Shown in pieces: positions 2,226-60,245 of a DNA stretch of 64,000 nucleotides (position 1 is the stretch's first letter; every line of letters starts with the position of its first letter). The stretch covers positions 35,139 through 99,138 of the forward strand of contig CAKRLV010000009.1 of NCBI GenBank assembly GCA_934359755.1. The letters run 5' to 3'. The notes under the pieces were generated by a model. It had not been told where the DNA came from. It saw nothing but the letters and a program-made list of their open reading frames with translations, and did no database searches. Position numbers and translations under genes: made by a program. The stretch comes from an uncultured Agathobacter sp. (GTDB lineage: Bacteria > Bacillota > Clostridia > Lachnospirales > Lachnospiraceae).

Positions 2226-5048
2226 CTACAGATTTCTATCCTGCTTCTTTTTCAAAAGTGCCTGGGTATCTATCACCTGTGGAGCACTATCCTTTTTAGC
2301 TGCTTTTGATGCTTTTACCCGTTTTGCAGATTTTTCTGGTGTTGCATTATTTACTGTTTTTGCGGCATTTACTGTTTTTGCAGTATTTACTGTTTTTGCG
2401 GTATTTCTATTTGACTCATTCTTATCTGCAATAGTCTTCTGTTCTGCTGTCTTTGCACGATTCTTTTGGCTGACACATTTTCTTACTACACTTTCAAATG
2501 CATATATCCAGTCCACATGCATACGCCTGAATACAACATCAATCACAAACATAAAAACAGCTATGATAAGAAATATCATCGTAAGGTCATGTCTGGATAC
2601 TGCGCCTTTTAACTTTGTGTTAAAAACTTCATCTGGTTTATCTATATATTTACCTGATACCTGATTGACAAAGTTGCCAATATTGCTCTCCATATCAGCG
2701 TATCTGTATTCCTGTGAATATTGCATTGCTGTTGCTGTATTTAAGCTTTTTTCTATCGTATTTCCTGTCTGCCTGCGCACATTTATACTATAGACACCAG
2801 TCTCTTCAAGTGGTACATCAGCCTGATATTTTCCAGGCGCAACAGCTGTAAGCTTTACCTGTGTCTGATTGCCGTCCTCATCAGTAACAACCGCCTCTAC
2901 TTTCGTATCCGCCGTATACTCGTCCGTATCATAAGTAATTACCGCAGAAGATGCCTCCTGTTTTACCTCTAAAGTATCATCTCCCAGTGCATCATCATAT
3001 ATAGTCCAGTCTATTATATTGCGCCACAGGTTGGCGTAGTTCTGCCACCCTGCGAAATTTGCAGTCCACTGATTAGTTCCATCACTCGTCCATGCAGCTG
3101 TATGCCCAAGTCCATACTGCCAGCATGCCAGAATGGGATCTCCTTTATCTGATTCAAGCAGTACTTTCGCAGTCTGCTTTGGCGTTGTGGCAATATATCC
3201 AAGCAGGCTTGGTGAGCCATCATCGAAGACTCCTTTTAAAATATCGTGTGTACTTACGATAGCTGGTACAAATTCCTCATTTATAAGATATTCCTGGGTT
3301 GACAGATAAACTTCCTGTGCAAAAATTCTTGGAAGTGCAGTTCCCGCATCTGAATAGTAATATCTTCCGTTACATTGTTCTGCCAGTTCTTTTAGCATCT
3401 GTGAATCTGCATCCTGTCCTACAGCAACTGTAGAAAGTGTTATATTATCTTTTTCTATCTGGTCTACCAGTTCAGAATACTCTCGATATCCGTCCTGTCC
3501 ATCCGTGAGCAGAACTATATGTTTTATGGCTGCATCCGATTTTGCAAGAGTCTCCTCTGCATGTGCAATCGCTGGATATATACTTGTTCCACCACCGCTT
3601 CTTATGTCTGCTATATTCTGCTCAATCGAATCAATATCTGCTGCACTTTGTAATTTGACTGCCCATGAATACCTATCGTCAAATGCAAGTACACCAACCT
3701 CATCAATCTCCCTTAAAGAAGATAGCGAGTTAATTGCTGCCTGCTTTGCCACATCAAGACATGTAATTCCGCCGCCCACTGTCGAACCAGCTTCCATACT
3801 TCCTGAATGGTCAATTACCATCATCATTGCAATCTTCGGAATCTGCTTGTCACCTTCAAGTTCCATACTCACCGGAAGTACTTCCTCAAGCGGTGAGTTC
3901 TTATAATTTCCAAGTGCGTAACTGTTTGTTCCGCCAATCACTGCAAGTCCACCCGCATAATCCTTCACATAGGTCTCAAGTGTATCCATGAACCCTTCAC
4001 GCAGATCATCCGCATACACATCAAGCATGACTACAGACTGATACCTGAGCATATCAGAAATTGTCCCTGGAACTCCTGATGGCGAAACAACCTCGTAATC
4101 ATAGTTGCACGACTTAAGAATTTCCTGAAATAAAAGACTCTCATCCTTCATTCCTTCCACAAGTAGTATTTTTGCTGGTGCGCATACCTTTGTAAACGCG
4201 CTATAAGTGTTATTGACAGATACAGTGTCCTTGTCGCTTTCTACCACAACTCTATAACTTTTTATGCCGCTTTCCACTCCCTGGTCTGAGAAGACAAGTT
4301 TATTGTTCCCTTTCTGGAGTTTGACATCTTTTTTCCCTTTTAATGTTCTTCCTGAATAAAGGGAAACGCTCGCATTAGTCGCATCTGTTGCATATATATC
4401 AACGTTCACGTCGAATTTATCTCCCTCAGATATAGACTCTGGAAGATCCACGCTGCTGACATATACCTCATCTGACACACTGCTGTCAAAGCTTTTTATT
4501 TTAAGCTCTATCTGCGCTCCGGCCACTGATGATGCAATATCGGCTGCACTGCCCTCATTCTCCGCTCCATCTGTAAGCAGAACCAATCTCCTTGCACTGC
4601 CATCTGGAAAAAGTGCCATTGCCGTAGTAATCGCCTGTTCTATATTAGTAGCTGTACCAACCACTTTTGACTGCACCTCGGTAAAAGCCTTTTTATCGGA
4701 TACAAATTGTTCTATCTTCGCCTGCGCACCAAACACTACGATTCCTGCATTATTCTTGTCCGGCATCTTAGAAATAGCATCCTGTACATACTCTACTTCC
4801 GCCTGCCAGTTCGTCTTCATGCTATCGGACATATCTACAAGAAAAACTGTTGTTGTGACATCACTTTTTCTATGGATACTCGGTCCTGAAAGTGCCATTA
4901 CTGCCAGAATTATCACAATACTTCTTATTATGATTTCTCCTATGATTCTGCTATTTTTCTGACGATGAAAAAGTCGAATCGCTGTAATAAGTATTATCAT
5001 TATGGGTATTAGAACCAGTACCCACGGCTTTGCAAATTCCAGTGTCAT
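2226..5048 (-). CDS. Large membrane-anchored protein with two von Willebrand factor A (vWA) domains (BatB-like) and a basic repetitive C-terminal tail
   Basis: N-terminal TM segment, then MIDAS-type motifs VFLVDMSDSM and MMMVIDHSGSM. Start set at the internal MTLEF (5048), which is preceded by AAGGAG, rather than the ORF-track start at 5090. The C-terminal tail contains TAKTVN repeats. Confidence 0.7.
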   Translation of the reverse strand: MTLEFAKPWVLVLIPIMIILITAIRLFHRQKNSRIIGEIIIRSIVIILAVMALSGPSIHRKSDVTTTVFLVDMSDSMKTNWQAEVEYVQDAISKMPDKNNAGIVVFGAQAKIEQFVSDKKAFTEVQSKVVGTATNIEQAITTAMALFPDGSARRLVLLTDGAENEGSAADIASSVAGAQIELKIKSFDSSVSDEVYVSSVDLPESISEGDKFDVNVDIYATDATNASVSLYSGRTLKGKKDVKLQKGNNKLVFSDQGVESGIKSYRVVVESDKDTVSVNNTYSAFTKVCAPAKILLVEGMKDESLLFQEILKSCNYDYEVVSPSGVPGTISDMLRYQSVVMLDVYADDLREGFMDTLETYVKDYAGGLAVIGGTNSYALGNYKNSPLEEVLPVSMELEGDKQIPKIAMMMVIDHSGSMEAGSTVGGGITCLDVAKQAAINSLSSLREIDEVGVLAFDDRYSWAVKLQSAADIDSIEQNIADIRSGGGTSIYPAIAHAEETLAKSDAAIKHIVLLTDGQDGYREYSELVDQIEKDNITLSTVAVGQDADSQMLKELAEQCNGRYYYSDAGTALPRIFAQEVYLSTQEYLINEEFVPAIVSTHDILKGVFDDGSPSLLGYIATTPKQTAKVLLESDKGDPILACWQYGLGHTAAWTSDGTNQWTANFAGWQNYANLWRNIIDWTIYDDALGDDTLEVKQEASSAVITYDTDEYTADTKVEAVVTDEDGNQTQVKLTAVAPGKYQADVPLEETGVYSINVRRQTGNTIEKSLNTATAMQYSQEYRYADMESNIGNFVNQVSGKYIDKPDEVFNTKLKGAVSRHDLTMIFLIIAVFMFVIDVVFRRMHVDWIYAFESVVRKCVSQKNRAKTAEQKTIADKNESNRNTAKTVNTAKTVNAAKTVNNATPEKSAKRVKASKAAKKDSAPQVIDTQALLKKKQDRNL

Positions 5049-14670: not shown

Positions 14671-14892
14671 ATCTTTTCCCTTTCATTTTTAATTTCTATT
14701 TAAGTAGTGGCTCGTAATGAGGTAATTTTAGTATTCTGAGGGGATGGGACTTAGTGCTGTGAATATAATCAAGGATGTGGCTATTGTATTTTTTGTGCGC
14801 TCCAAGTCCTCGTGTTAAGATACTCTAAATAATTCAATTTAGAATATCTATAAGTGACGTGTCGCTCATATTCGCCGTCCTGGCTCAGTGAA

Positions 14893-15242
14893 TCTTTACA
14901 GGATTTGCATTCTTCGCACTTCACAACCTGAAATTGCTTTGCACTACACAATGTATCTGTCGGAGAGCATGTATGTGTTCCGAAGAAAACAAATACGGAC
15001 TACACCGAGGCTCCGCTACGTATGGCAAACACAATAACGTAGCAAGCAACAAAAATCTATCCTTAATCAGGCTCGGGGTTAATTCCGTATTTTTTTCTGA
15101 GGAATATCGTACATGCTATGCCGACATCCAACACACCCGAAGTGCAAAGCACTACAAACCTCAAAGTGCAAAGCTTTACAAAACTCAAAGTGCAAAGCAC
15201 TACAAACCTCAAAGTGCGAAGCTACCACTCATGTAAACAGGA
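14893..15242 (+). mobile_element. MITE-like intergenic element, copy A (about 350 bp), with terminal inverted repeats and internal roughly 24-bp tandem repeats
   Basis: Left end TTTACAGGATTTGCATTCTTCGCACTT and right end AAGTGCGAAGCTACCACTCATGTAAACAGG are inverted repeats of each other. The body is about 90% identical to the reverse complement of 52007-52332. Internal repeats are AAAGTGCAAAGCACTACAAACCTC-like units (x4). Confidence 0.7.
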
Positions 15243-15385
15243 GTTGCCTCATGGACATATTATAGCAAAAAAAGATTAAGATGAAACTCTGAAAACATTT
15301 AAGATTTTATTAAGAAATAAGTGCGCCACAAAAAGTATTATGCTAAACTAAAACCATAAATTCTGACAGCATACGGAGGACAATT

Positions 15386-49532: not shown

Positions 49533-49705
49533 TTTTCACGGTCATAACTTTCTATATGACAGTTGTTTTTCACAGTCATGACTTTCTATATGACAGTTGT
49601 TTTTTACGGTCATGACTTTCTATATGACCTCTATATGACAGTTGTTTTTCACGGTCATGACTTTCTATATGACAGTTGTTTTTCACGGTCATGACTTTCT
49701 ATTTT
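49533..49705. repeat. Five roughly 35-bp direct tandem repeats
   Basis: GACAGTTGTTTTTCACGGTCATGACTTTCTATAT x5 with small variants. Confidence 0.85.
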
Positions 49706-51102
49706 TCATCCGTATTGCTTACATATACACCTCTGCTCTTATCACCTTCTGGGTTCTTTCCGAACTCATAATCATTGCCTGGCAAAATGGCATTTAGCAG
49801 GATTCCTGCAATCGCAGCTATTGCAAGGGCTGTAAGTGTGATTGATGTTCCGGCTATTTCAAATGTAAGACCATTCGAGAAACCAAGTCCACATACAAAT
49901 ATAACACCTGCAATAATGAGGTTACGTGATTTTGTCAAGTCAACCTTGTTTTCTACAACATTTCTAACTCCAATTGCTGAAATCATTCCATAAAGCATAA
50001 ATGATACTCCACCAATTATAGCTGTTGGCATTGTTGAAATTATTGCTGAAAATTTAGGAATGAATGAAAGTACAATTGCAAATACAGCTGCAATTCTGAT
50101 TACAATTGGATCATATACTTTCGATAACTCTAACACTCCTGTGTTTTCTCCATATGTTGTATTCGCTGGTCCGCCAATCAATCCTGAAAGTGATGTTGCA
50201 AGTCCGTCTCCAAGAAGCGTTCTGTGAAGTCCAGGCTCTGCCAAAAAGTTCTTTCCTACTGTCGCAGATATAGCTGACATATCACCGATATGCTCCATCA
50301 TCGCTGCGATTGCGATTGGTGCCATAACAAGGATCGCAGTAAAATCAAATTTGCACAACTGGAACTGTGGCAATCCGACGATTCCTGCGTCAGCGACCGC
50401 CTTGAAATTCAGGATAGCACTTCCATCTGCGTTTAGCATTCCACATGCATTAAAAATCACTGCACACACATATGAGATGATAACGCCCATGAGAATCGGG
50501 ATGATTTTAAATAATCCTTTTCCCCAGATATTGAAAATAATAATTACTCCTAGTGCAATAATTGCCAGAAGCCAATTGTTTGATGCATTTGAAACTGCAG
50601 ATGGTGCAAGTGAAAGTCCAATACATATAATGATTGGTCCTGTAACTACAGGTGGCAAAAACTTCATAACACGGTTTACACCAGCCAGTTTAATAATCAA
50701 AGCTAAAATAAAATACAGCAAACCAGCAACTACAATTCCACCACACATATATGCAGCTCTATCATTTGCAGACATATTTGCATATATTCCAGTATCAAGA
50801 TTTGCAATTGTGAAAAATCCACCCAGAAATGCAAATGATGAACCTAAAAATGCTGGAACCTGTAATTTAGAGCAAAGATGGAATACAAGTGTTCCAAATC
50901 CTGCACAAAATAGTGTAACTGATACTGTAAGGCCTCTGCTTGGAGCCGCTCCTACAGCCTCTGTAAGATATCCTGAAATCAAAATTGGAACAAGTATTGT
51001 TGCTCCAAACATTGCAAACATATGCTGAAGACCTAATATCAGCATTTTGGGAATTCCCAGTGTCTTGGCGTCATAGATTGCGCCTTCTTTTTTTTCATAC
51101 AT
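49699..51102 (-). CDS. NCS2-family uracil/xanthine permease
   Basis: GLQHMFAMFGATILVPIL signature and about 12 TM helices. Start at MYEKKEG (51102) is preceded by AAAGGAG. Confidence 0.85.
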   Translation of the reverse strand: MYEKKEGAIYDAKTLGIPKMLILGLQHMFAMFGATILVPILISGYLTEAVGAAPSRGLTVSVTLFCAGFGTLVFHLCSKLQVPAFLGSSFAFLGGFFTIANLDTGIYANMSANDRAAYMCGGIVVAGLLYFILALIIKLAGVNRVMKFLPPVVTGPIIICIGLSLAPSAVSNASNNWLLAIIALGVIIIFNIWGKGLFKIIPILMGVIISYVCAVIFNACGMLNADGSAILNFKAVADAGIVGLPQFQLCKFDFTAILVMAPIAIAAMMEHIGDMSAISATVGKNFLAEPGLHRTLLGDGLATSLSGLIGGPANTTYGENTGVLELSKVYDPIVIRIAAVFAIVLSFIPKFSAIISTMPTAIIGGVSFMLYGMISAIGVRNVVENKVDLTKSRNLIIAGVIFVCGLGFSNGLTFEIAGTSITLTALAIAAIAGILLNAILPGNDYEFGKNPEGDKSRGVYVSNTDEK

Positions 51103-51982
51103 AATATTCTTTCTCCTTTTTATATATATCAGGTCGTCTATCCCTGAAAAGCCCCCAGCTTTTACGCTCTTTTTCAAACTCATCAAGATCAAATTTGTGC
51201 AATATAAATCCTTCTGTGACTCTGTCCATCTCTTCAACTACTTCGCCTGTAGCATCTGTTATAAAAGAGGAACCATAAAATGTCAGTGCAGAACTCTGGT
51301 TTCCATTTTCGCTGCATGGTTCAACCGTCTCCGTTCCAACTCTGTTTGCTGCAACTACCGGCATCAGATTACAAGCCGCATGACCTGTCATGCACCTTCT
51401 CCAATGTGGCATACTATCACATTCCAAAATAGGTTCACTTCCTATTGCAGTCGGATAAAATAATATCTCTGCGCCCTTTAATGCCATTGCACGCGCGGTC
51501 TCAGGAAACCACTGGTCCCAGCATATTCCAACACCAATTGTTCCATATTTAGTTTTAAAGGCTTTAAATCCTGTATCTCCAGGTGTAAAGTAAAATTTTT
51601 CCTGATAATAATGATCATCTGGGATATGCGTCTTTCTGTAGATTCCCAGCACCTCTCCATCAGCATCTACAACTGCCACTGTATTAAATAGCTGTCTGTT
51701 ATCCCCAGCCTCATAAAAGCTTACAGGAATAACCACTCCAAGTTCTTTTGCCAGCACTCTCATACTCTGTACTGCTTCATTTTCGTCAAGTGGCTTTGCA
51801 TATTCATAATACTCATAACGTCTTTCCTGACAAAAGTACTGCCTTTCAAACAACTCCGATGGAAGTATTATCTGAGCGCCCTGACTAGCGGCTTCTCTTA
51901 TAAGTTTTGAGGCTTTTTCGATATTTTCTTTTACATTTCTGCTGCAGCTCATCTGTATTGCTGCTACTGTGACCTCTCTCAT
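51095..51982 (-). CDS. aguB: N-carbamoylputrescine amidase (carbon-nitrogen hydrolase family)
   Basis: CN-hydrolase motifs (E...K...C catalytic triad context: IGVGICWDQWFPE). Polyamine-gene context. Confidence 0.8.
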   Translation of the reverse strand: MREVTVAAIQMSCSRNVKENIEKASKLIREAASQGAQIILPSELFERQYFCQERRYEYYEYAKPLDENEAVQSMRVLAKELGVVIPVSFYEAGDNRQLFNTVAVVDADGEVLGIYRKTHIPDDHYYQEKFYFTPGDTGFKAFKTKYGTIGVGICWDQWFPETARAMALKGAEILFYPTAIGSEPILECDSMPHWRRCMTGHAACNLMPVVAANRVGTETVEPCSENGNQSSALTFYGSSFITDATGEVVEEMDRVTEGFILHKFDLDEFEKERKSWGLFRDRRPDIYKKEKEYYV

Positions 51983-52006
51983 TTTTCGTCCTCTCTATTC
52001 TAAACT

Positions 52007-52332
52007 CTCGTTTACATAATTTGTGTTTTCGAACTTTTTGGGGGCTTGTAATGCTTTGCACTTTGGGGGCTTGTAATGCTTTGCACTTTGGGTGTATGGA
52101 CGTCGGCATAGCATGTACGATATTCCTCTGAAAAAAATACGAAGTTAACCCCGAGCCTGATTACAGATAGGATACCACAATTTGTCACATTATTATGTTT
52201 GCTATATATAGCGGAGCCTCGGTGTAGTCCGTATTTGTTTTCTTCGGAACACATACATACTCTCCGACATATACATCGTGAGTGCAAAGCAATTCAGGCT
52301 GTGAAGTGCGATGCCACAAATCATGTAAACAG
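52007..52332 (-). mobile_element. MITE-like element copy B, inverted relative to copy A, inserted between aguB and aguA
   Basis: Terminal inverted repeats CTCGTTTACATAATTTG ... CAAATCATGTAAACAGG. About 90% identical to the reverse complement of 14893-15242. Internal GGGGGCTTGTAATGCTTTGCACTTT x2 tandem repeat. Confidence 0.7.
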
Positions 52333-52335
52333 GAA

Positions 52336-53466
52336 TCAAATCGGTATTTGCTGTGTAATACAGTGAATATTTCCACCGCCCACAATTATATCCCGTGCGA
52401 AAATCGGATACACCTTCCTGTCAGGGAAAAGTCCTCCTATGATTTCAACAGCTTTTTCATCCATCTCATCCCCGAACTGTGGCACAAGCACTCCGCCATT
52501 TGTAATATAGAAATTCACATAACTTGCGGCAAGTCTCTCACCTGCCTCTCTCTCATCCTCGCCTTCTTCAAATACGAATCCTGCCAGTTCATGTTCTGTG
52601 ATACATACCGGCTTCCTTGGAATCGGGACTTTATGAACGACCAGCTTTCTGCCTCTTGCATCTGTTACTTTTTCCAGAACGGCTATATCTGCTGCCGACA
52701 TTTTGTATTGTGGATCACTCTCATCATCTGTCCATGCAAGTGCCACATGTCCAGGTTCGGTAAATGCACATATGTTGTCAACATGTTCGTTTGTCTCGTC
52801 ATTATATATGCCATATGGTATCCATATTATTTTCTTTGCACCAAGATAGTCCTTTAATTTCTGTTCGATTTCTTCTTTAGATAAAGATGGATTGCGTCCT
52901 TTACTAAGTAGACAGCTTTCTGTCACAATTACCGTTCCTTCTCCATCTGTGTGTATTGCTCCGCCTTCCAGCACAAACGGATGTGCATCATAAACATCAT
53001 ATCCCGTCTCTTCGCAGAATGTCGATGCTACCTTATCATCTTTTTGCCAGCTGGCATACAAACCATCAAATTCTCCGCCCCAGGCATTGAACTGCCAGTC
53101 TATTCCACGCACATCGCCCATTCCATTTATGGCAAATGTAGGTCCGACATCTCTTGCCCACGCATCATCGGATTCCATCTCTATATAATTTATTGGAAAT
53201 TCACATTTATATTTTCCAGATTGGGCAAGCACCTCTATAATCTCTCTTGCATTGTCAATTACATCGGATTCCGCCAGCACGTATACCTGCTCTGATTCAG
53301 CAATCGCACATATTACATTGGCAAATGCTTCCCTCGCCTTTTTTGCTCCGTATATCCATGAGCCGGGTCTTTTAGGCCAGATAATGATTGTTCCTCTATG
53401 CAGTTCATATTCTGCTGGCATATAAAATCCATCTTCGCTAGGACAGCCTGTTTTTAAAATCTTCAT
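52336..53466 (-). CDS. aguA: Agmatine deiminase
   Basis: Porphyranase/PAD-type agmatine deiminase motifs (MPAEYE..., GGNIHCITQQ). Start at MKIL (53466) is preceded by AGGAGA. The ORF-track start at 53499 is further upstream. Confidence 0.8.
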   Translation of the reverse strand: MKILKTGCPSEDGFYMPAEYELHRGTIIIWPKRPGSWIYGAKKAREAFANVICAIAESEQVYVLAESDVIDNAREIIEVLAQSGKYKCEFPINYIEMESDDAWARDVGPTFAINGMGDVRGIDWQFNAWGGEFDGLYASWQKDDKVASTFCEETGYDVYDAHPFVLEGGAIHTDGEGTVIVTESCLLSKGRNPSLSKEEIEQKLKDYLGAKKIIWIPYGIYNDETNEHVDNICAFTEPGHVALAWTDDESDPQYKMSAADIAVLEKVTDARGRKLVVHKVPIPRKPVCITEHELAGFVFEEGEDEREAGERLAASYVNFYITNGGVLVPQFGDEMDEKAVEIIGGLFPDRKVYPIFARDIIVGGGNIHCITQQIPI

Positions 53467-54655
53467 ACCCGAATCTCCTGATAACCTTACACTCGCCATC
53501 TGCCTCCATAACTGCTATATCCGGAAGCGGCATTCCGTTAAATGTATTATTTTTCACCATTGAATAAATCGCCATATCGCAGAAAGTGAGCCTGTCGCCT
53601 ATCTTTATCTCTTTGTCAAATGAATAATCTCCAATCACATCTCCCGCAAGGCACGTACATGATGATAATCTGTAAGTGTACTTTTTCTCACCTGCTTCTC
53701 CGCTATCTCTAAGTGGCGGACGATACGGCATTTCCAAAACATCTGGCATATGACATGCTGCCGATGTATCTAAAATGAGGATATTTATCTCTCCATTTTT
53801 TACTATATCAAGTACTGTAGTAACCAGATATCCTGCATTAAGTGCAACGGCCTCACCCGGTTCAAGATATATTTCAAGATTGTACTTTTCCTGCATATGC
53901 CTGATGCATTTTTCTAAGCGTGATATGTCGTAATCTTCTCTTGTAATATGATGACCGCCACCCATATTGAGCCATCTGACATCATATAATAAATCACCAA
54001 ATTTTTCCTCAACCGCCGCAAGGGTCTTTTCCAGATCATCCGAATTCTGCTCGCAAAGCGTATGAAAATGCAAGCCATCTATTTTTGACAGATCCAGCCC
54101 GTTTTCAAGCGCTTTGTCAAGCTCAGCCCTTGTAATTCCCAGTCTTGAGCCAGCTCCGCATGGATCATATATCTCATGTCCCTCCTGCGTTGAACACTCA
54201 GGGTTTATCCGAATCCCTACACTTACAATATCGCCACCATCCACCTGTCCATCTTTTCCCACACGTTTTGAAATAAGCTGTAATTTCTTTGCCGCCTCAA
54301 TTTTAGGCTGATGATACAGATACTGCGACACCGAGTTAAAAACTATATGATCGCATATACGAACAAGTTCATCCATTTCTTTCGGCAGAAATGCTGGACA
54401 GAATACATGGTTTTCTTTACCCATTTCCTCATGCGCAAGTCTTGCCTCATACAGTCCGCTTGCTGTGGTTCCACTTAAATATTGACCTATAAGTGGATAT
54501 TCATAAAAGGCACTAAACGCTTTCTGTGCAAGAAGAATCTTCGCTCCCGTCCTTGTCATCACACCGTTTAAAATTTTCAGATTATCCGTCAGCCTGCCCT
54601 CATCTATCACATAGCAGGGTGTTTCGAGTTCATCAATCCTCATCTGCTTCTCCAA
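53438..54655 (-). CDS. nspC: Carboxynorspermidine/carboxyspermidine decarboxylase
   Basis: Length and motifs of CANSDC (YVIDEGRL, GGGHH). Confidence 0.75.
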   Translation of the reverse strand: MEKQMRIDELETPCYVIDEGRLTDNLKILNGVMTRTGAKILLAQKAFSAFYEYPLIGQYLSGTTASGLYEARLAHEEMGKENHVFCPAFLPKEMDELVRICDHIVFNSVSQYLYHQPKIEAAKKLQLISKRVGKDGQVDGGDIVSVGIRINPECSTQEGHEIYDPCGAGSRLGITRAELDKALENGLDLSKIDGLHFHTLCEQNSDDLEKTLAAVEEKFGDLLYDVRWLNMGGGHHITREDYDISRLEKCIRHMQEKYNLEIYLEPGEAVALNAGYLVTTVLDIVKNGEINILILDTSAACHMPDVLEMPYRPPLRDSGEAGEKKYTYRLSSCTCLAGDVIGDYSFDKEIKIGDRLTFCDMAIYSMVKNNTFNGMPLPDIAVMEADGECKVIRRFGYEDFKNRLS

Positions 54656-54679
54656 ATTTATATTAAATTACCACATATG

Positions 54680-54810
54680 TTCTATAGTTATTTTGGGATT
54701 CTCTATAGCATTTTTTAATGCTCCATAGTTTTTTGAATGATCTATAGTTATTTTTGAATTCTCCATAGTTATTTTTGAAGTCTCTATAACTAATTCTAAC
54801 TATTTTGCAT
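54680..54810. repeat. Six degenerate roughly 21-bp tandem repeats (TCTATAGTTATTTTTGAATTC-like)
   Basis: Visible as repeated CTATAGTTATTTT units between nspC and the dehydrogenase gene. Confidence 0.75.
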
Positions 54811-54882
54811 TTAAATCTCATATGCCATATTATTAGAATTTATTGTACACTTTGAAAACAAGTCTAGTTACATTTCTGTATC

Positions 54883-56178
54883 CTAGTCCATATGCACAGA
54901 CTCATCAGCCGTCTTATAACAATCCACAAGTTCCGGATTCTCAACTACTTTCCATGGAAGTCCAAATTTATTAAGCGCATCCATGTATGGATCTGGATCC
55001 ATCTCCTCAAGATTAAATACGCCCGGCTTTTTCCACAATCCTGTCACAACCATCATTGAACCAATCATAGCCGGTACACCTGTTGTGTATGATATTGCCT
55101 GTGATTCAACCTCTTTGTAACATTCCTGATGATCACATACATTATAAATATAGATAGATTTTTCTTTTCCATCTTTGATTCCTGTAAAAATACATCCAAT
55201 GTTTGTCTTTCCTACAGTACGTGGTCCAAGTGATGCAGGATCTGGTAAAAGTTCTTTAAGAAGCTGAATTGGAACTATCTCTTTTCCATCTACCATTACA
55301 GGATCTGTTCTTAACATTCCAACATTTTCAAGACATTTCATATGTGTGAGGTAACTCTGTCCAAATGTCATAAAGAATCTGATTCTCTTGATTCCTGGAA
55401 TATTTTTAGCAAGCGATTCTATCTCTTCATGATGAAGCAGATACATGTCTTTTTCTCCAACCTGGTCAAAGTTGTACTGCGCGCGCCACTCCATTGGCTC
55501 TGTCTCTACCCAGTGTCCATCTGCCCAGTATGAACCGTTTGCAGACACTTCACGGAGATTTATCTCTGGATTGAAGTTCGTCGCGAATGGATATCCATGG
55601 TCGCCACCATTACAATCGAGAATATCAATTGTATGAATCTCATCAAAATAATGTTTTAATGCATACGCTGAGAAAACAGAAGTTACACCTGGATCAAATC
55701 CGCTTCCGAGAATAGCTGTAAGCCCTGCTTCTTTGAACTTCTCCTGATATGCCCACTGCCATGAATAATCAAAGTACGCTGTAAATCCAAGTTCCCTGCA
55801 TCTCTTCTCATATATCGCACGCCACTGTGGATCCTCTGTGTCCTCACATTCATAGTTAGCTGTATCAATATAATCTACACCACATGCAAGACATGCATCC
55901 ATAATAGTAAGATCCTGATATGGAAGTGCAACATTAAGCACAGCGTCTGGTTTATATGAATTAATAAGTTCCTTGAGTTCTTCTACATTATCCGCATCCA
56001 CTTTTGCAGTCTCAATCCTGGTTGTAGTAGTTCCTTCAAGTTTAGCCTTCAAATCATCACATTTTGACTTTGTGCGGCTCGCAATCATTATCTCCGTAAA
56101 AACTTCACTGTTCTGACAGCATTTTCTGATAGCTACAGATGCAACGCCTCCGCATCCAATAATAAGTAATCTGCTCAT
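54883..56178 (-). CDS. Carboxynorspermidine/carboxyspermidine dehydrogenase (saccharopine dehydrogenase family)
   Basis: MSRLLIIGCGGVASVAIRK Rossmann motif. Saccharopine dehydrogenase-like sequence. Confidence 0.75.
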   Translation of the reverse strand: MSRLLIIGCGGVASVAIRKCCQNSEVFTEIMIASRTKSKCDDLKAKLEGTTTTRIETAKVDADNVEELKELINSYKPDAVLNVALPYQDLTIMDACLACGVDYIDTANYECEDTEDPQWRAIYEKRCRELGFTAYFDYSWQWAYQEKFKEAGLTAILGSGFDPGVTSVFSAYALKHYFDEIHTIDILDCNGGDHGYPFATNFNPEINLREVSANGSYWADGHWVETEPMEWRAQYNFDQVGEKDMYLLHHEEIESLAKNIPGIKRIRFFMTFGQSYLTHMKCLENVGMLRTDPVMVDGKEIVPIQLLKELLPDPASLGPRTVGKTNIGCIFTGIKDGKEKSIYIYNVCDHQECYKEVESQAISYTTGVPAMIGSMMVVTGLWKKPGVFNLEEMDPDPYMDALNKFGLPWKVVENPELVDCYKTADESVHMD

Positions 56179-56195
56179 TTTTATCCCTCCTGATT

Positions 56196-57053
56196 TTAAT
56201 TGTTTTCCTCTTCTTCCAATAAATCTTCAACATATCGCGGCAGCATAAATGCCCCCCTATGCAAGTTAGTTGTATAGTACCACGTCTTAAGTCCAAGTGC
56301 TTCCCATTTTGCAGGATTCAAATCATTCAATGGATGATATTTCTTCGATGCAAAACCAAACAGCCAGTATCCCGACGGGCACGTAGGAATATGTGCCTGA
56401 TATACTCGGCTTATTGGAAACGACTTATATACTTTTCTATGCATTTTCCTGCACTCGACCTCATCCTCATCATAGAACGGACTTCCATGCTGATACACCA
56501 TAACACCATCTTCTTTAAGTGCCTTGTAGCAGCTTCCATAAAATTCTTTTGTAAAAAGTCCTTCTGTATGTCCCAGAGGATCTGTTGAATCATTGATAAT
56601 CAAATCGTATTCATCATTTTTCCTTCTGAGGAATCTAAGACCATCATCATAGTGCATTGAAATCCTTGGATCATCAAGTCCACACGCCACTTCAGGAAAA
56701 AAATTTCTACACACATCGACAAACATCTTGTCCGTTTCAACCACATCAATCTGTTCGATTGATGGATAATTGATAAGTTCCTTGGCAACACCGCCGTCAC
56801 CACCACCGATTATAAGCACTTTTTTCACATTAGGGTGAACCGCCATCGGTACGTGCGTAACCATCTCATCATATATGAACTCATCTGTATCCGAAAAAAC
56901 AATCTCACCATCTAACGCGACCATTTTTCCAAATTCATATGATTTAAAAACTTCTATTTTCTGGTAATCACTCTGTCCCGAAAAAAGCTGTTCTTCTATT
57001 CTGACATCCAGCCTGACATTCGATGTGTGATATTCCGAAAACCACATATGCAT
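56196..57053 (-). CDS. speE: Polyamine aminopropyltransferase (spermidine synthase)
   Basis: VLIIGGGDGGVAKE and DSTDP motifs. Confidence 0.85.
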   Translation of the reverse strand: MHMWFSEYHTSNVRLDVRIEEQLFSGQSDYQKIEVFKSYEFGKMVALDGEIVFSDTDEFIYDEMVTHVPMAVHPNVKKVLIIGGGDGGVAKELINYPSIEQIDVVETDKMFVDVCRNFFPEVACGLDDPRISMHYDDGLRFLRRKNDEYDLIINDSTDPLGHTEGLFTKEFYGSCYKALKEDGVMVYQHGSPFYDEDEVECRKMHRKVYKSFPISRVYQAHIPTCPSGYWLFGFASKKYHPLNDLNPAKWEALGLKTWYYTTNLHRGAFMLPRYVEDLLEEEENN

Positions 57054-57129
57054 ATCATTCTACCTCCACTGTATTTTAATGAACTCCCAATATCTTTGTC
57101 ATTTAGCGTCGGATTTAAGGGTGCTCATA

Positions 57130-58590
57130 TCAGACCTCTGTATCTGCAAGCACCTGCAGATATTCAACAGCGGGATCTTCCGTTCCCTGCATTGAACATC
57201 CCTTTTCCTTTGCATATAAAATATATTCTGCAATCTCTTTTGTGATAAGCTCACCTGGTGCAAGAATAGGAATTCCCGGCGGATAACACATCACAAACTC
57301 TCCGCTTATACAGCCAACCGAATCCTTAATCTGTACTGATTTTTTTTCTGAATAAAATGCTTTCTGTGGTGACACTGCCACCTGCGGATTAATGTATTCC
57401 CCTGATAAAAGTCCTGTTTTATCCTTGCTGTACAATCTCTTTATATCCTCGAGCGCACCTACAAGTCTTTCTATATCCTGTATTCTGTCACCAATTGATA
57501 TATATGCAAGTATATTACAGATATCACCAAACTCTATCTGTATGTCATATTCGTCACGAAGCAGATCATATACTTCAATTCCAGCCAGTCCTATATCAAG
57601 CGTATAAATGGATAACTTCGTCACATCATAATCATATATGCTTGTTCCATTTACCAGATCCCGCCCATAAGCATAATATCCACCAATCGAATTAATTTCC
57701 TGCCTTGCATACTCCGACATCTGTGCCACTTTTTCAAAAGATTCTGCTCCACGCAATGCCAGATTTCTTCTCGAAATATCAAGACTTGACAAAAGCAGAT
57801 ACGAGGCGCTTGTAGTCTGTGTGAGATTAATTATCTGCCTCACATAATCTGCATTTACATTCTTTCCCGTAAGGAGAATCGAACTCTGCGTCAGGCTTCC
57901 TCCTGATTTGTGCATTGAAATTGCCGACATATCTGCACCTGCTGCCATTCCCGATATAGGAAGATTTCTTCCAAAATAAAGATGCGTACCATGTGCCTCA
58001 TCTGTGAGAACTTTCATTCCTTTTGCATGAGCTGCTTTTACAATTGACTTTAAATCTGAACATATTCCATAGTAAGTAGGATTGTTGACAAGTACTGCCT
58101 TTGCATCGGGGTTCTCTTCAATTGCTTTCTCTACCTGATTTACTTCCATCCCAAGAGAAATTCCAAGCTTTGCATTCATCTGTGGATTCACATATATAGG
58201 AATTGCGCCACATAAAACTAACGCATTGAGTGCGCTCTTGTGTACATTTCTTGGAAGTATAATCTTGTCACCTGCCTTACATGTTGACAAAATCATCGCC
58301 TGTACTGCCGATGTCGTTCCTCCAACCATAAGAAAAGCGTTCTCCGCGCCAAATGCATCTGCTGTAAGCTCCTCCGCTTCTCTGATAACAGAAACCGGGT
58401 GGCACAGATTATCGAGAGGCTTCATAGAGTTTACATCAAGGCCTACACACTTTTCTCCTAATAGCTGCACTAATTCTGGATTTCCTCTGCCTCTTTTGTG
58501 TCCGGGCACATCAAAAGGAACCACTCTCTTTTTCTTAAACACCTCAAGTGCCTCGTATATCGGCGCACGCTGCTGTCTTTTTATATCCAT
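57130..58590 (-). CDS. speA: Orn/Lys/Arg decarboxylase family PLP enzyme (arginine decarboxylase SpeA-type in Firmicutes)
   Basis: SMHKSGGSL lysine-PLP motif. 486 aa, fold-I decarboxylase. Confidence 0.75.
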   Translation of the reverse strand: MDIKRQQRAPIYEALEVFKKKRVVPFDVPGHKRGRGNPELVQLLGEKCVGLDVNSMKPLDNLCHPVSVIREAEELTADAFGAENAFLMVGGTTSAVQAMILSTCKAGDKIILPRNVHKSALNALVLCGAIPIYVNPQMNAKLGISLGMEVNQVEKAIEENPDAKAVLVNNPTYYGICSDLKSIVKAAHAKGMKVLTDEAHGTHLYFGRNLPISGMAAGADMSAISMHKSGGSLTQSSILLTGKNVNADYVRQIINLTQTTSASYLLLSSLDISRRNLALRGAESFEKVAQMSEYARQEINSIGGYYAYGRDLVNGTSIYDYDVTKLSIYTLDIGLAGIEVYDLLRDEYDIQIEFGDICNILAYISIGDRIQDIERLVGALEDIKRLYSKDKTGLLSGEYINPQVAVSPQKAFYSEKKSVQIKDSVGCISGEFVMCYPPGIPILAPGELITKEIAEYILYAKEKGCSMQGTEDPAVEYLQVLADTEV

Positions 58591-58707
58591 TATTTATTAC
58601 TCTCCTCTGTGATTCTAAATATAAAAGAGTCTCCCTGCGACTCCCTGCGAAGCCTGATGCAAACTACTTGTGAGAGTCTTTACTACTCTACGCGCAACCA
58701 TGTTGTA

Positions 58708-58740
58708 AAAAAAAGATGATGCCCTCGCATCATCTTTGTT
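58708..58740 (-). terminator. Rho-independent terminator upstream of speA promoter
   Basis: On the minus strand: AAAGATGATGCGAGGGCATCATCTTTTTTTT. Confidence 0.7.
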
Positions 58741-59507
58741 TAATATTCTTCACATGTCTCAAGCTTAAAAGTTGCCTTTTCGTTTTATTGACCGTTTCAC
58801 AAGATGATGTGCAATTAGCACTGATTATTAAGTAATCAACTTATAAAATTTGAGCTTCTAACTCAATCAATAATGTGGTCTCCCACGCTCGGCAACCGCC
58901 CCGCCTGTCCGTATGGGCTTAACTTCTGTACTATCCAGAAGTGGGCTATATGTTTTAAACTGACTTATCGTCGAATTGTTCTAACATACTTATAAAATCG
59001 TAACACACACGAATATGTTATGCAAGATTTTTTATATATTCTTCCGCAAAATTGTTGTTTATCGCGCTAGCGTTATTTACGTAGTGGCTCGAAATGAGCT
59101 TCCAACCAATCGAATCAGGGCAACCGCTATATACTAAATTGGCATGAGCGATAGTATTATCTTGATTTGCACCAATACCTTTGAAAAGATTTGATGGCTG
59201 ATAGTATATTTTAAGAGCGATTCCGCAACGACGTAGAGTATCTTAATAATTCGCTCGTAATCAGCGGGAAATTGCCACGGACGGCAATTTCAGCGAACAT
59301 GAGACAGGACGTCGAATGTGAGCGACGCGTCACTTATCGATAAACTTATCGAATTATTTAGATACTCAAGGAAGTGAGGACCTGGCGAATAAAATATACT
59401 ATCAGCCATCAAATTAAATTCACAACACAAAATAGCAAATCAAAATAAATACTATCGCTCATGCTTCACAAAGTAAAAAGGTTGCCCGAACCTCGACAAA
59501 CAGCAAT

Positions 59508-60245
59508 TTACGTTTCAATCCAGGATATCATGGTAAGCCCATGTGCTGGCGCTGTCGGTCCTGCTGCATTTCTGTCGCAGGCTTCCAATATACTTCTCAT
59601 ATTATCAACAGAAATTGTACCGTCTCCAACCTTTATCAACGTTCCCGCTATTATTCTTACCATATTGTACAAAAAGCCATTGCCCTTTATACGGATAGTA
59701 ATAACATCATCCTTTTTATTTACATCGCATGAATATATCGTGCGTACAGTAGTCTTCACCTGGCTCCCCGCACTGCAAAAGCTCTTGAAGTCATGTTCCC
59801 CCACCAGTATGTCTGCCGCTCTCTGCATCTTATACACATCCAGCTTGTAGTGGAAGAAATATGTATCAAGTCTGCGTGTAGGGTCAGGGAATTTTCTGTT
59901 CAGGATTCTATATTCATATGTCTTCGTACTGTTTACATATCTCGGATGCCAATCATCTGGCACTTCCGCTGAATCAACTACCACAACGTCATCTGGCAGG
60001 CTTTGATTTATGGCGTAGCATATCTTATCCCCTGGCATTCTCGTATTTGTGTCAAAAACACATATATTTCCAAGGGAATGTACCCCTGAATCAGTTCGGC
60101 TCGCACCGCTTACTACTATCTCTTCACCCAAAAGTATGCTAAGTTTCTCATTTAGAACCTGTTCAATTGTAATTCCATTCGGCTGCACCTGCCAGCCACA
60201 ATAATTGGTGCCATCGTAGGCAACCGTCATTCTTATTCTTTTCAT
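59508..60245 (-). CDS. truA: tRNA pseudouridine(38-40) synthase
   Basis: VAYDGTNYCGWQVQPN...RTDSGVHS catalytic Asp motif. Confidence 0.9.
   Translation of the reverse strand: MKRIRMTVAYDGTNYCGWQVQPNGITIEQVLNEKLSILLGEEIVVSGASRTDSGVHSLGNICVFDTNTRMPGDKICYAINQSLPDDVVVVDSAEVPDDWHPRYVNSTKTYEYRILNRKFPDPTRRLDTYFFHYKLDVYKMQRAADILVGEHDFKSFCSAGSQVKTTVRTIYSCDVNKKDDVITIRIKGNGFLYNMVRIIAGTLIKVGDGTISVDNMRSILEACDRNAAGPTAPAHGLTMISWIET

Follow-up and report, generated by a model that had tools for sequence, protein, structure and literature searches.

The subject of this study is a non-coding palindromic element, here called X, that lies between the genes aguA and aguB in a polyamine operon of an uncultured Agathobacter sp. 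(Lachnospiraceae). The window, meaning the whole stretch of DNA that was analysed, comprises 64,000 nucleotides of contig CAKRLV010000009.1. The genes of the operon were assigned by Pfam, and AguB shares 82-90% identity with proteins annotated as Agathobacter sp. In the direction of transcription, the locus reads as follows:

57130-58590, minus strand: speA-like Orn/Lys/Arg decarboxylase
56196-57053, minus strand: spermidine synthase
54883-56178, minus strand: carboxyspermidine dehydrogenase (saccharopine-dehydrogenase family)
53438-54655, minus strand: carboxyspermidine decarboxylase (Orn/DAP/Arg decarboxylase family)
52336-53499, minus strand: aguA, agmatine deiminase (PAD_porph)
52004-52335, minus strand (sense is the operon strand): copy B of X, a nested palindrome of ~330 bp that fills the aguA-aguB spacer
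51983-52003, minus strand: remaining spacer with the aguB ribosome-binding site (GAGAGGACGAAAA-ATG), predicted to be mostly unpaired
51095-51982, minus strand: aguB, N-carbamoylputrescine amidase (CN_hydrolase)
49699-51237, minus strand: xanthine/uracil permease, overlapping aguB

The gap between aguA and aguB measures 353 bp, and 52004-52335 of it belong to X. The aguA reading frame is untouched, as the consensus end of the element, (G)ATTCCTG, takes in just the final 1-2 nt of the TGA stop codon of aguA (52336-52338). At its other end X stops only 22 nt before the aguB start codon. On balance, we favour the reading that copy B is an inserted member of a low-copy family of ~330-bp nested palindromes, which is read through in the operon mRNA and, by an effect that we infer, lowers the output of aguB and the permease as a leaky terminator or site of RNA processing.

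Anatomy, copies and distribution of element X

Copy B matches 14895-15181 of the window in inverted orientation, with 85% identity over 288 bp (E = 4.6e-86). The original prediction, which was made from this DNA alone, had placed a copy of a repeat across the entire aguA-aguB gap, and this is what we find: a repeated, non-coding palindrome bounded by terminal inverted repeats. An nhmmer profile built from 23 copies detects two copies in the window, A and B, and no others. Copy A sits between an open reading frame (ORF) of 818 aa on the minus strand and an operon for a response regulator and a histidine kinase on the plus strand. That the similarity between A and B is due to chance or to low-complexity sequence, with no real element behind it, has practically no probability left, as it is refuted by the E-value and by the end-to-end alignment of the 23 distinct copies, which come from independent samples. 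The parts of the element are:

14889-15245, plus strand (sense is the plus strand): copy A, inverted relative to copy B
52313-52335: terminal inverted repeat of copy B on the aguA side, ATTCCTGTTTACATGATTTGTGG on the operon strand
52004-52026: degenerate terminal inverted repeat on the aguB side, complementary to the other end at 18 of 23 positions (manual base-by-base count)
52037-52092: subterminal tandem repeat of copy B, 25 nt x 2.2, each unit with a small palindrome GTGCAAAGCA(C/T)
15140-15222: subterminal tandem repeat of copy A, 24 nt x 3.5
52281-52293: the GTGCAAAGC palindrome motif, occurring once on the aguA side and in inverted orientation
52214-52269, minus strand: conserved inner arm, sense 5' arm (TGTCGGAGAG...CCGAGGCTC), mean identity between loci 96%
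52101-52157, minus strand: conserved inner arm, sense 3' arm with a hairpin-plus-U7 motif, mean identity between loci 91%
52158-52213, minus strand: hypervariable apex, ~63% identity, several sequence types

The terminal inverted repeats are 17-23 nt long with the consensus ATTCCTGTTTACATGATTTG, which is found with its complement at both ends of copies B and C and is degenerate in A and D. The right-end 17-mer CCTGTTTACATGATTTG, at up to 3 mismatches, matches both ends of copy B and one end of copy A (0.37 matches expected by chance), and in the window and the 64 loci that were searched the terminal-repeat motif occurs only at the ends of X. Inside the termini lie modules of 24-25 nt, each with the palindrome AGTGCAAAGCACT. 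One inverted module stands on the sense-5' side and 2.2 (copy B) to 3.5 (copy A) modules on the 3' side, and their number differs in other strains. The inner arms, of ~57-70 nt each, pair imperfectly with one another around the apex. The span of the apex from CCGAG to CTCGG is 72 nt in 22 of the 23 copies, despite the turnover of its sequence, and at locus A two apex types segregate among strains with identical arms. Mean identity between loci falls to 62% in the outer terminal zone. The whole of X is predicted to fold as one long hairpin, an imperfect duplex of ~150 bp, with a folding energy of -113.6 kcal/mol for the operon-sense RNA (z = -8.6) and -107.2 kcal/mol for the antisense RNA (z = -5.2).

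A spurious sense-strand ORF served as the handle by which further copies were found, and all of these come from human-gut metagenome assemblies (Hadza, MERR22, and others). They occupy the following sites:

Locus A: the site of window copy A, in other strains
Locus B: the aguA-aguB junction, as window copy B
Locus C: between convergent genes for an ABC permease and a chemotaxis receptor (MCP), from stop codon to stop codon
Locus D: flanking an Rpn-family PD-(D/E)XK gene
Locus E: a fragment of X upstream of a paralogous Rpn-like gene

The sense strand of X is co-directional with the flanking gene or genes at all five loci. At loci B, C and D, and likewise behind the Rpn-like gene, the distance from the stop codon of the co-directional gene to the start of X is 0-26 nt. 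Wherever X faces the 3' end of a gene it abuts or overlaps the stop codon (L019 5050-5363; window 52336-52338); the junctions read TGA/TTCCTG at aguA, TAA/GATTCCTG at the ABC permease and, on the other strand, TAA/TTCCTG at MCP. At locus C no unique spacer is left between the two genes. Variants include a mini-X without the inner hairpin and a fragment without most of the core, and at locus A there are tandem arrays of X with a period of ~395-442 bp.

Beyond these sites the wide searches are nearly empty. A scan of 185,579 GTDB species genomes with a core 20-mer gave a chance match only, and the JGI metagenome scan (core 19-20-mer) gave one true match, L040, and two chance matches. Four scans of viral contigs and blastn searches of plasmid and phage collections yielded no match to X. 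The family is therefore rare and essentially restricted to one uncultured human-gut Lachnospiraceae species close to Agathobacter.

X was also considered as a coding gene and as a known RNA family, and both were rejected. Both window copies contain a sense ORF of 91-100 codons. The homologous ORF calls have inconsistent starts and ends, and three retrieved protein clusters (P0001-P0003) run into neighbouring genes and have no Pfam match, as expected of gene-caller artefacts. In copy B the ORF has neither an ATG nor a ribosome-binding site, and several stop codons lie between its frame and aguA. Against all 4227 Rfam models X has no match at E <= 10. At the gathering threshold, the Rfam scan of the window reports only a TwoAYGGAY RNA at 59221-59382, a tRNA, and an ldcC/SpF59 leader.

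The aguA-aguB junction in sister species and in the population

The empty-site comparison that had been proposed for this gap was carried out. The genes aguA and aguB share 4 nt (ATGA) in one sister species and are separated by 29 nt in a second and by 106 nt in a third; some strains of the second have a spacer of 84 nt, made up of the 29 nt and a 55-nt hairpin. A conserved spacer of 350 bp without identity to copy A, the outcome that was to speak against an insertion, is present in none of these relatives. The C-terminus of AguA and the position of its stop codon are conserved across the sister species. Given this conservation and the short sister spacers, the 353-bp spacer is a derived insertion that left both proteins intact. 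The junction acquires palindromic inserts repeatedly, since strains of a sister species differ there by the 55-nt hairpin. That hairpin insertion (GTCTCACA...TGTGAGAC) is what separates L030 (2916-3001) from L029 (2971-3001).

Within the species the slot is dimorphic. The ~23 contigs that cover locus B carry either X or an unrelated allele of 607 bp, which contains a TwoAYGGAY RNA match (87 bits) and is partly an inverted copy of the window's truA-speA intergenic region (59051-59509). Homology between the alleles breaks inside the aguA stop codon (TGA/TTCCTG vs TAA/ATTTC) and resumes ~20 nt before the aguB start, and two different variants of the AguA protein occur with each allele. The X allele is frequent: at least 10 samples contain it, and its 353 nt are 100% identical in 9 other complete contigs and one partial contig. 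The genes on either side show 0.5-0.8% divergence among these contigs, and from strain to strain the locus A copies of X diverge by 2-9%. Such invariance amid varying flanks and locus A copies suggests that the X allele arose once and comparatively recently. It is associated with a haplotype of its own in the 5' part of aguB, a region in which X and TwoAYGGAY contigs diverge by at least 1.1%, and this linkage suggests that the allele spread by homologous recombination. The insertion is tolerated.

A further arrangement is seen in L014 (5388-6001). Here truA is joined to aguB through a 612-bp spacer of the TwoAYGGAY type, and the five genes from speA to aguA are absent (compare window 52336-59100). 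In strains with the 607-bp allele this block has TwoAYGGAY-type repeats on both sides, and a deletion between them seems to have produced the arrangement.

Mobility, transcription and rival readings

The original prediction called X a miniature inverted-repeat transposable element (MITE). Measured against the description of prokaryotic MITEs in PMC10969869, X has the size (~330 bp, under 500 bp), is non-coding, and has terminal inverted repeats. It is not AT-rich, with a GC content of 41-42% vs 38.6% for the window. Mobility is favoured by the terminal inverted repeats, by the occurrence of X at no fewer than five unrelated loci and its absence from the orthologous junction in sister species, by the mini-X and the fragment, and by the tandem arrays. 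A deletion in the window also counts in its favour: its breakpoint coincides with the end of copy A, and the TwoAYGGAY element next door has lost half of its sequence. The low copy number, about 5-6 loci, and the lack of AT-richness speak against mobility. Because the evidence runs both ways, we call X MITE-like only. It is a MITE-like or BOX/SPRITE-like small interspersed repeat and not a proven MITE: the predicted name stands for the inverted repeats, the repetition, and the lack of coding capacity, and falls short on the target-site duplication, the autonomous partner, the empty allele within the species, and the copy number.

A consensus scan finds no sigma-70-like promoter in X on either strand. 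At copy A the scan offers only one candidate, a weak site of hybrid type (TAAACA, 18 nt, TATTAT) across the end of the element. With no promoter in X and just 22 nt between the element and the aguB start, transcription of aguB would have to pass through X, and any effect would then be polar dampening. The suggestion that X brings a new promoter is therefore not supported, and neither is the proposed decoupling of aguB and the permease from the upstream genes. On the operon strand of copy B, a hairpin-U7 motif consists of CGGGGTTAACTTCG followed by TATTTTTTTC (52153-52130, minus strand), with the U7 run at about 52136-52130. A simple scanner flags a terminator-like motif in copies B, A, and C, and the U7 run is kept in all full-length copies. 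The arms contain GAAAAAAATACG...CGTATTTGTTTTC, so that both strands read an A-run, a hairpin, and a T-run. At locus C, where X fills the whole stop-to-stop gap, it is the sole terminator-like feature. Together with the co-directional orientation at all five loci, this suggests that the strand on which X is read is of consequence and that the host may make use of its terminator-like core, as the main rival reading below has it.

We picture the sequence of events as follows. Transcripts of aguB and the permease would start at the speA leader and run through X, which would fold within the operon mRNA as its ~150-bp imperfect hairpin. The hairpin-U7 motif may stop a fraction of the polymerases, giving partial termination, and/or the duplex may be a candidate for double-strand-specific cleavage of the RNase III type that alters the stability of mRNA segments, on the model of Correia and ERIC elements (PMC10969869). 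Overall, output of aguB and the permease would be lowered relative to speA-aguA. Translation of aguB would stay independent, because its ribosome-binding site lies outside X, is intact, and is mostly unpaired in the predicted ensemble. A leaky polar effect is preferred to decoupling, as a strong block would cut putrescine synthesis, yet the X allele is frequent. X thus probably acts as a leaky terminator or an RNA-processing site. The attenuator or terminator of the original prediction is plausible in kind and predicted to be weak in strength.

Several observations weigh against this picture of a transposed, transcribed, and leaky element. No target-site duplication is present at any junction inspected (loci A, B, C, and D). 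This is weak negative evidence, because the flanking direct repeats of MITEs decay with age (PMC10969869). No autonomous element with matching ends was found in genome and metagenome scans, which used the core 19-20-mer and not the terminal repeat. There is no empty allele among the ~23 contigs at locus B or among the 11 contigs and the window at locus A, and even the nearest relative of copy B among the X copies shares only ~88% identity with it. Conservation is lower in the termini than in the inner arms, which is the reverse of the usual MITE pattern and the opposite of what transposase-driven conservation would give. Ahead of the U7 run stands an irregular hairpin of 100 nt (-22.6 kcal/mol) whose closing stem is rich in A and U, with only two G-C among its 7 pairs; the alternative local hairpin has 5 bp and -2.0 kcal/mol. 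As a terminator of the canonical Firmicute type, the motif fits poorly. Covariation gives no support for a selected RNA structure: almost all of the 63 consensus pairs from RNAalifold are invariant, only 2 have any double change, and two candidate apex hairpins are 82.1% paired vs 82.4% in shuffles. With invariant pairs and an apex no better than shuffles, the support for the structure is thermodynamic. Finally, all statements on the transcription of X are inferred.

TwoAYGGAY modules and Rpn-family genes accompany X and bear on one of the alternatives. Their positions are:

59221-59382, plus strand: TwoAYGGAY copy upstream of speA, antisense to the operon (Rfam)
14697-14887: half of a TwoAYGGAY-type element abutting copy A, of which other strains carry the full element
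L002 7287-7447, L022 4590-4752, and L021 4824-4984: other TwoAYGGAY copies
L040: Rpn-like gene at 38-997, X at 1-41 and 1132-1412
L064: Rpn-like gene and X or mini-X at 595-921, 1025-2032, and 2029-2146
L059: Rpn-like paralogue and upstream fragments at 1922-2204 and 3001-3948

At loci A, C (L021), D, and E, TwoAYGGAY-element sequence is fused to X at its sense-5' end, and full TwoAYGGAY copies adjoin X in other strains. In this species TwoAYGGAY behaves as a repeated, polymorphic intergenic module. The Rpn-like protein family is large, and most of its genes are on short contigs, as expected for repeated genes.

The main rival reading holds that X is a bidirectional terminator or insulator recruited by the host, similar to SPRITE elements, which separates aguB-permease from speA-aguA while aguB is served by an unrecognised promoter. 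It would account well for inner arms that are near-invariant between loci while termini and apex drift, for the A-run, long hairpin, and T-run on both strands, for an element that spans two convergent stop codons exactly at locus C, and for its position right behind co-directional stop codons. The closing stem is weak, though, the hairpin is long and irregular, and mini-X copies lack the inner hairpin altogether. A strong terminator so close to aguB, with no promoter in X, would silence the gene and break the route from agmatine to putrescine, and the allele is nevertheless common; we regard this reading as rather unlikely. A second alternative places the function in the conserved arms, with X encoding or being a structured RNA (a small RNA or a cis-acting element) and the palindromic DNA secondary. 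Arms that are better conserved than terminal repeats, a consistent orientation to the flanking genes at five loci, a sense strand that folds better than the antisense strand, U-G pairs of the consensus stem that become A-C mismatches on the other strand, and an apex of fixed length all agree with it. It is quite unlikely all the same, given the empty Rfam search, the invariant stem pairs that leave no covariation signal, apex hairpins that are not above shuffles, the lack of a promoter, and the confinement of X to essentially one species.

Another reading takes X to be a DNA hairpin or cruciform that serves as substrate for an Rpn-family PD-(D/E)XK nuclease, which moves or rearranges it; allele replacement, deletions next to X, and tandem arrays would then have one explanation. 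In L040 and L064 two directly oriented elements, one full X and one mini-X, stand on either side of an Rpn-family gene (PF12784), and ~0.8 kb upstream of a paralogue with 78% identity lie pieces of both TwoAYGGAY and X. Another PDDEXK_2 gene is 3.7 kb from locus C, and window copy A abuts the deletion that removed half of its TwoAYGGAY neighbour. Rpn proteins of Escherichia coli promote RecA-independent recombination (PMC5350276). They are not known as site-specific, however, and are toxic defence nucleases in that species (PMC10400941). An X-gene-X order in direct orientation is unlike a classical insertion sequence, tblastn finds no Rpn gene in the 64-kb window, and the association could reflect hot spots of the accessory genome. 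Two Rpn paralogues were inspected, and for this reason we hold a functional link between X and Rpn to be a low-probability lead and the reading itself very unlikely. In its widest form, X and TwoAYGGAY would be interchangeable cassettes of one DNA-rearrangement system in which Rpn nucleases recognise the hairpins or cruciforms of their DNA and bring about insertions, replacements, deletions next to the cassettes, and tandem arrays at the ends of genes, and this too is highly improbable. The leaky, read-through insertion therefore remains our preferred interpretation of copy B.

Related repeats, the rest of the operon and significance

Palindromic repeats within operons are well known, and for this reason X as a single finding is not surprising. 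It constitutes a previously undescribed family of a well-known kind, the small interspersed palindromic repeats of the MITE, BOX, and SPRITE type. Chunjie of Geobacter uraniireducens and other intra-operon MITEs share with X a length below 500 bp, terminal inverted repeats, the absence of coding capacity, and a transcript with a very stable stem-loop (PMC10969869). They also lie between co-transcribed genes, neither of which is destroyed, and occur as size variants and partial copies. X differs from them in having no target-site duplication and no parent insertion sequence, in its small number of loci, in not being AT-rich, and in its poorly conserved termini. The pneumococcal BOX elements are modular, as X is, with a variable number of internal or, in X, subterminal modules (Croucher et al. 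2011, PMC3049150). SPRITE elements have a terminator-like stem and a U-rich tract, are longer than normal Firmicute terminators, lie near the 3' ends of genes, and have neither a target-site duplication nor an empty site established, all of which is true of X (PMC3049150). Different repeat families of the BOX, RUP, and SPRITE type cluster and insert beside one another (PMC3049150), as X and TwoAYGGAY do. X has no sequence similarity to these three, is larger (~330 bp), has a handful of copies vs 30-125 per genome, and possesses a hypervariable apex of fixed length.

Correia (NEMIS) and ERIC elements are likewise palindromic repeats that are co-transcribed, as X presumably is; Correia hairpins are cut by RNase III, and ERIC alters mRNA decay. 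Correia has a TA duplication, functional promoters, and an integration host factor (IHF) site, none of which was found in X, and both families belong to another host phylum and reach very high copy numbers. REP/BIME sequences, which are associated with the RAYT (Y1) transposase, have palindromic units of 20-40 nt, which the 330-bp unit of X does not fit. The closest companion is TwoAYGGAY (RF01731; Weinberg et al. 2010, PMC2864571). It, too, is a structured module and a long palindrome, and it shares with X both the species and the intergenic slots. X has no RF01731 match and no sequence similarity to it. TwoAYGGAY is spread across Clostridiales, gamma-proteobacteria, and human-gut metagenome sequence (PMC2864571), whereas X is not.

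Other parts of the operon and its surroundings also carry repeats. The genes around X had been described as otherwise tightly packed, but the packing is not uniform: a second long gap, of ~227 bp (54656-54882), separates the carboxyspermidine dehydrogenase and decarboxylase genes. This gap contains 21-nt repeats (x 5.3), measures 221-239 bp between strains, and corresponds to 13-110 nt in sister species. Upstream of speA, an ldcC/SpF59 RNA motif (58889-58947, minus strand) is followed by a strong terminator-like hairpin (58737-58712, minus strand). The operon thus has a 5' control region of the leader type, which suggests control of the whole polyamine operon by leader attenuation. Between the permease stop codon and the rplM-rpsI promoter, a perfect consensus at 49527-49499 on the minus strand, lies a 34-nt tandem array (x 4.9; AGTTGTTTTTCACGGTCATGACTTTCTATATGAC) at 49527-49702, and the length of this spacer differs between strains. 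Further away, direct repeats at 43690-43987 and 46877-47285 are 89-94% identical over several collinear segments ~3.2 kb apart, which indicates a tandemly duplicated gene block.

What this study adds lies in the dimorphism of X and TwoAYGGAY, the conservation of arms over termini, and the link to Rpn. To our knowledge, no function has been assigned to TwoAYGGAY since 2010, and we know of no work that has substantiated the 'transposase' label of the Rpn family. The behaviour of TwoAYGGAY as a polymorphic, repeated intergenic module offers a lead for the former, and the association of X with Rpn is a testable lead on a large gene family. Should that association prove functional, X would be the first cognate cis element for the Rpn 'putative transposases', and TwoAYGGAY would have to be seen as a module of mobile DNA and not as a small RNA. 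The operon also provides a natural experiment, as strains differ in having X, a TwoAYGGAY block, or a deletion of five genes, and a comparison of aguB to aguA output between alleles would gauge the effect of the hairpin on polarity. At the level of the population, the gene junctions of a conserved biosynthetic operon in a gut commensal appear as landing pads for structured repeats.

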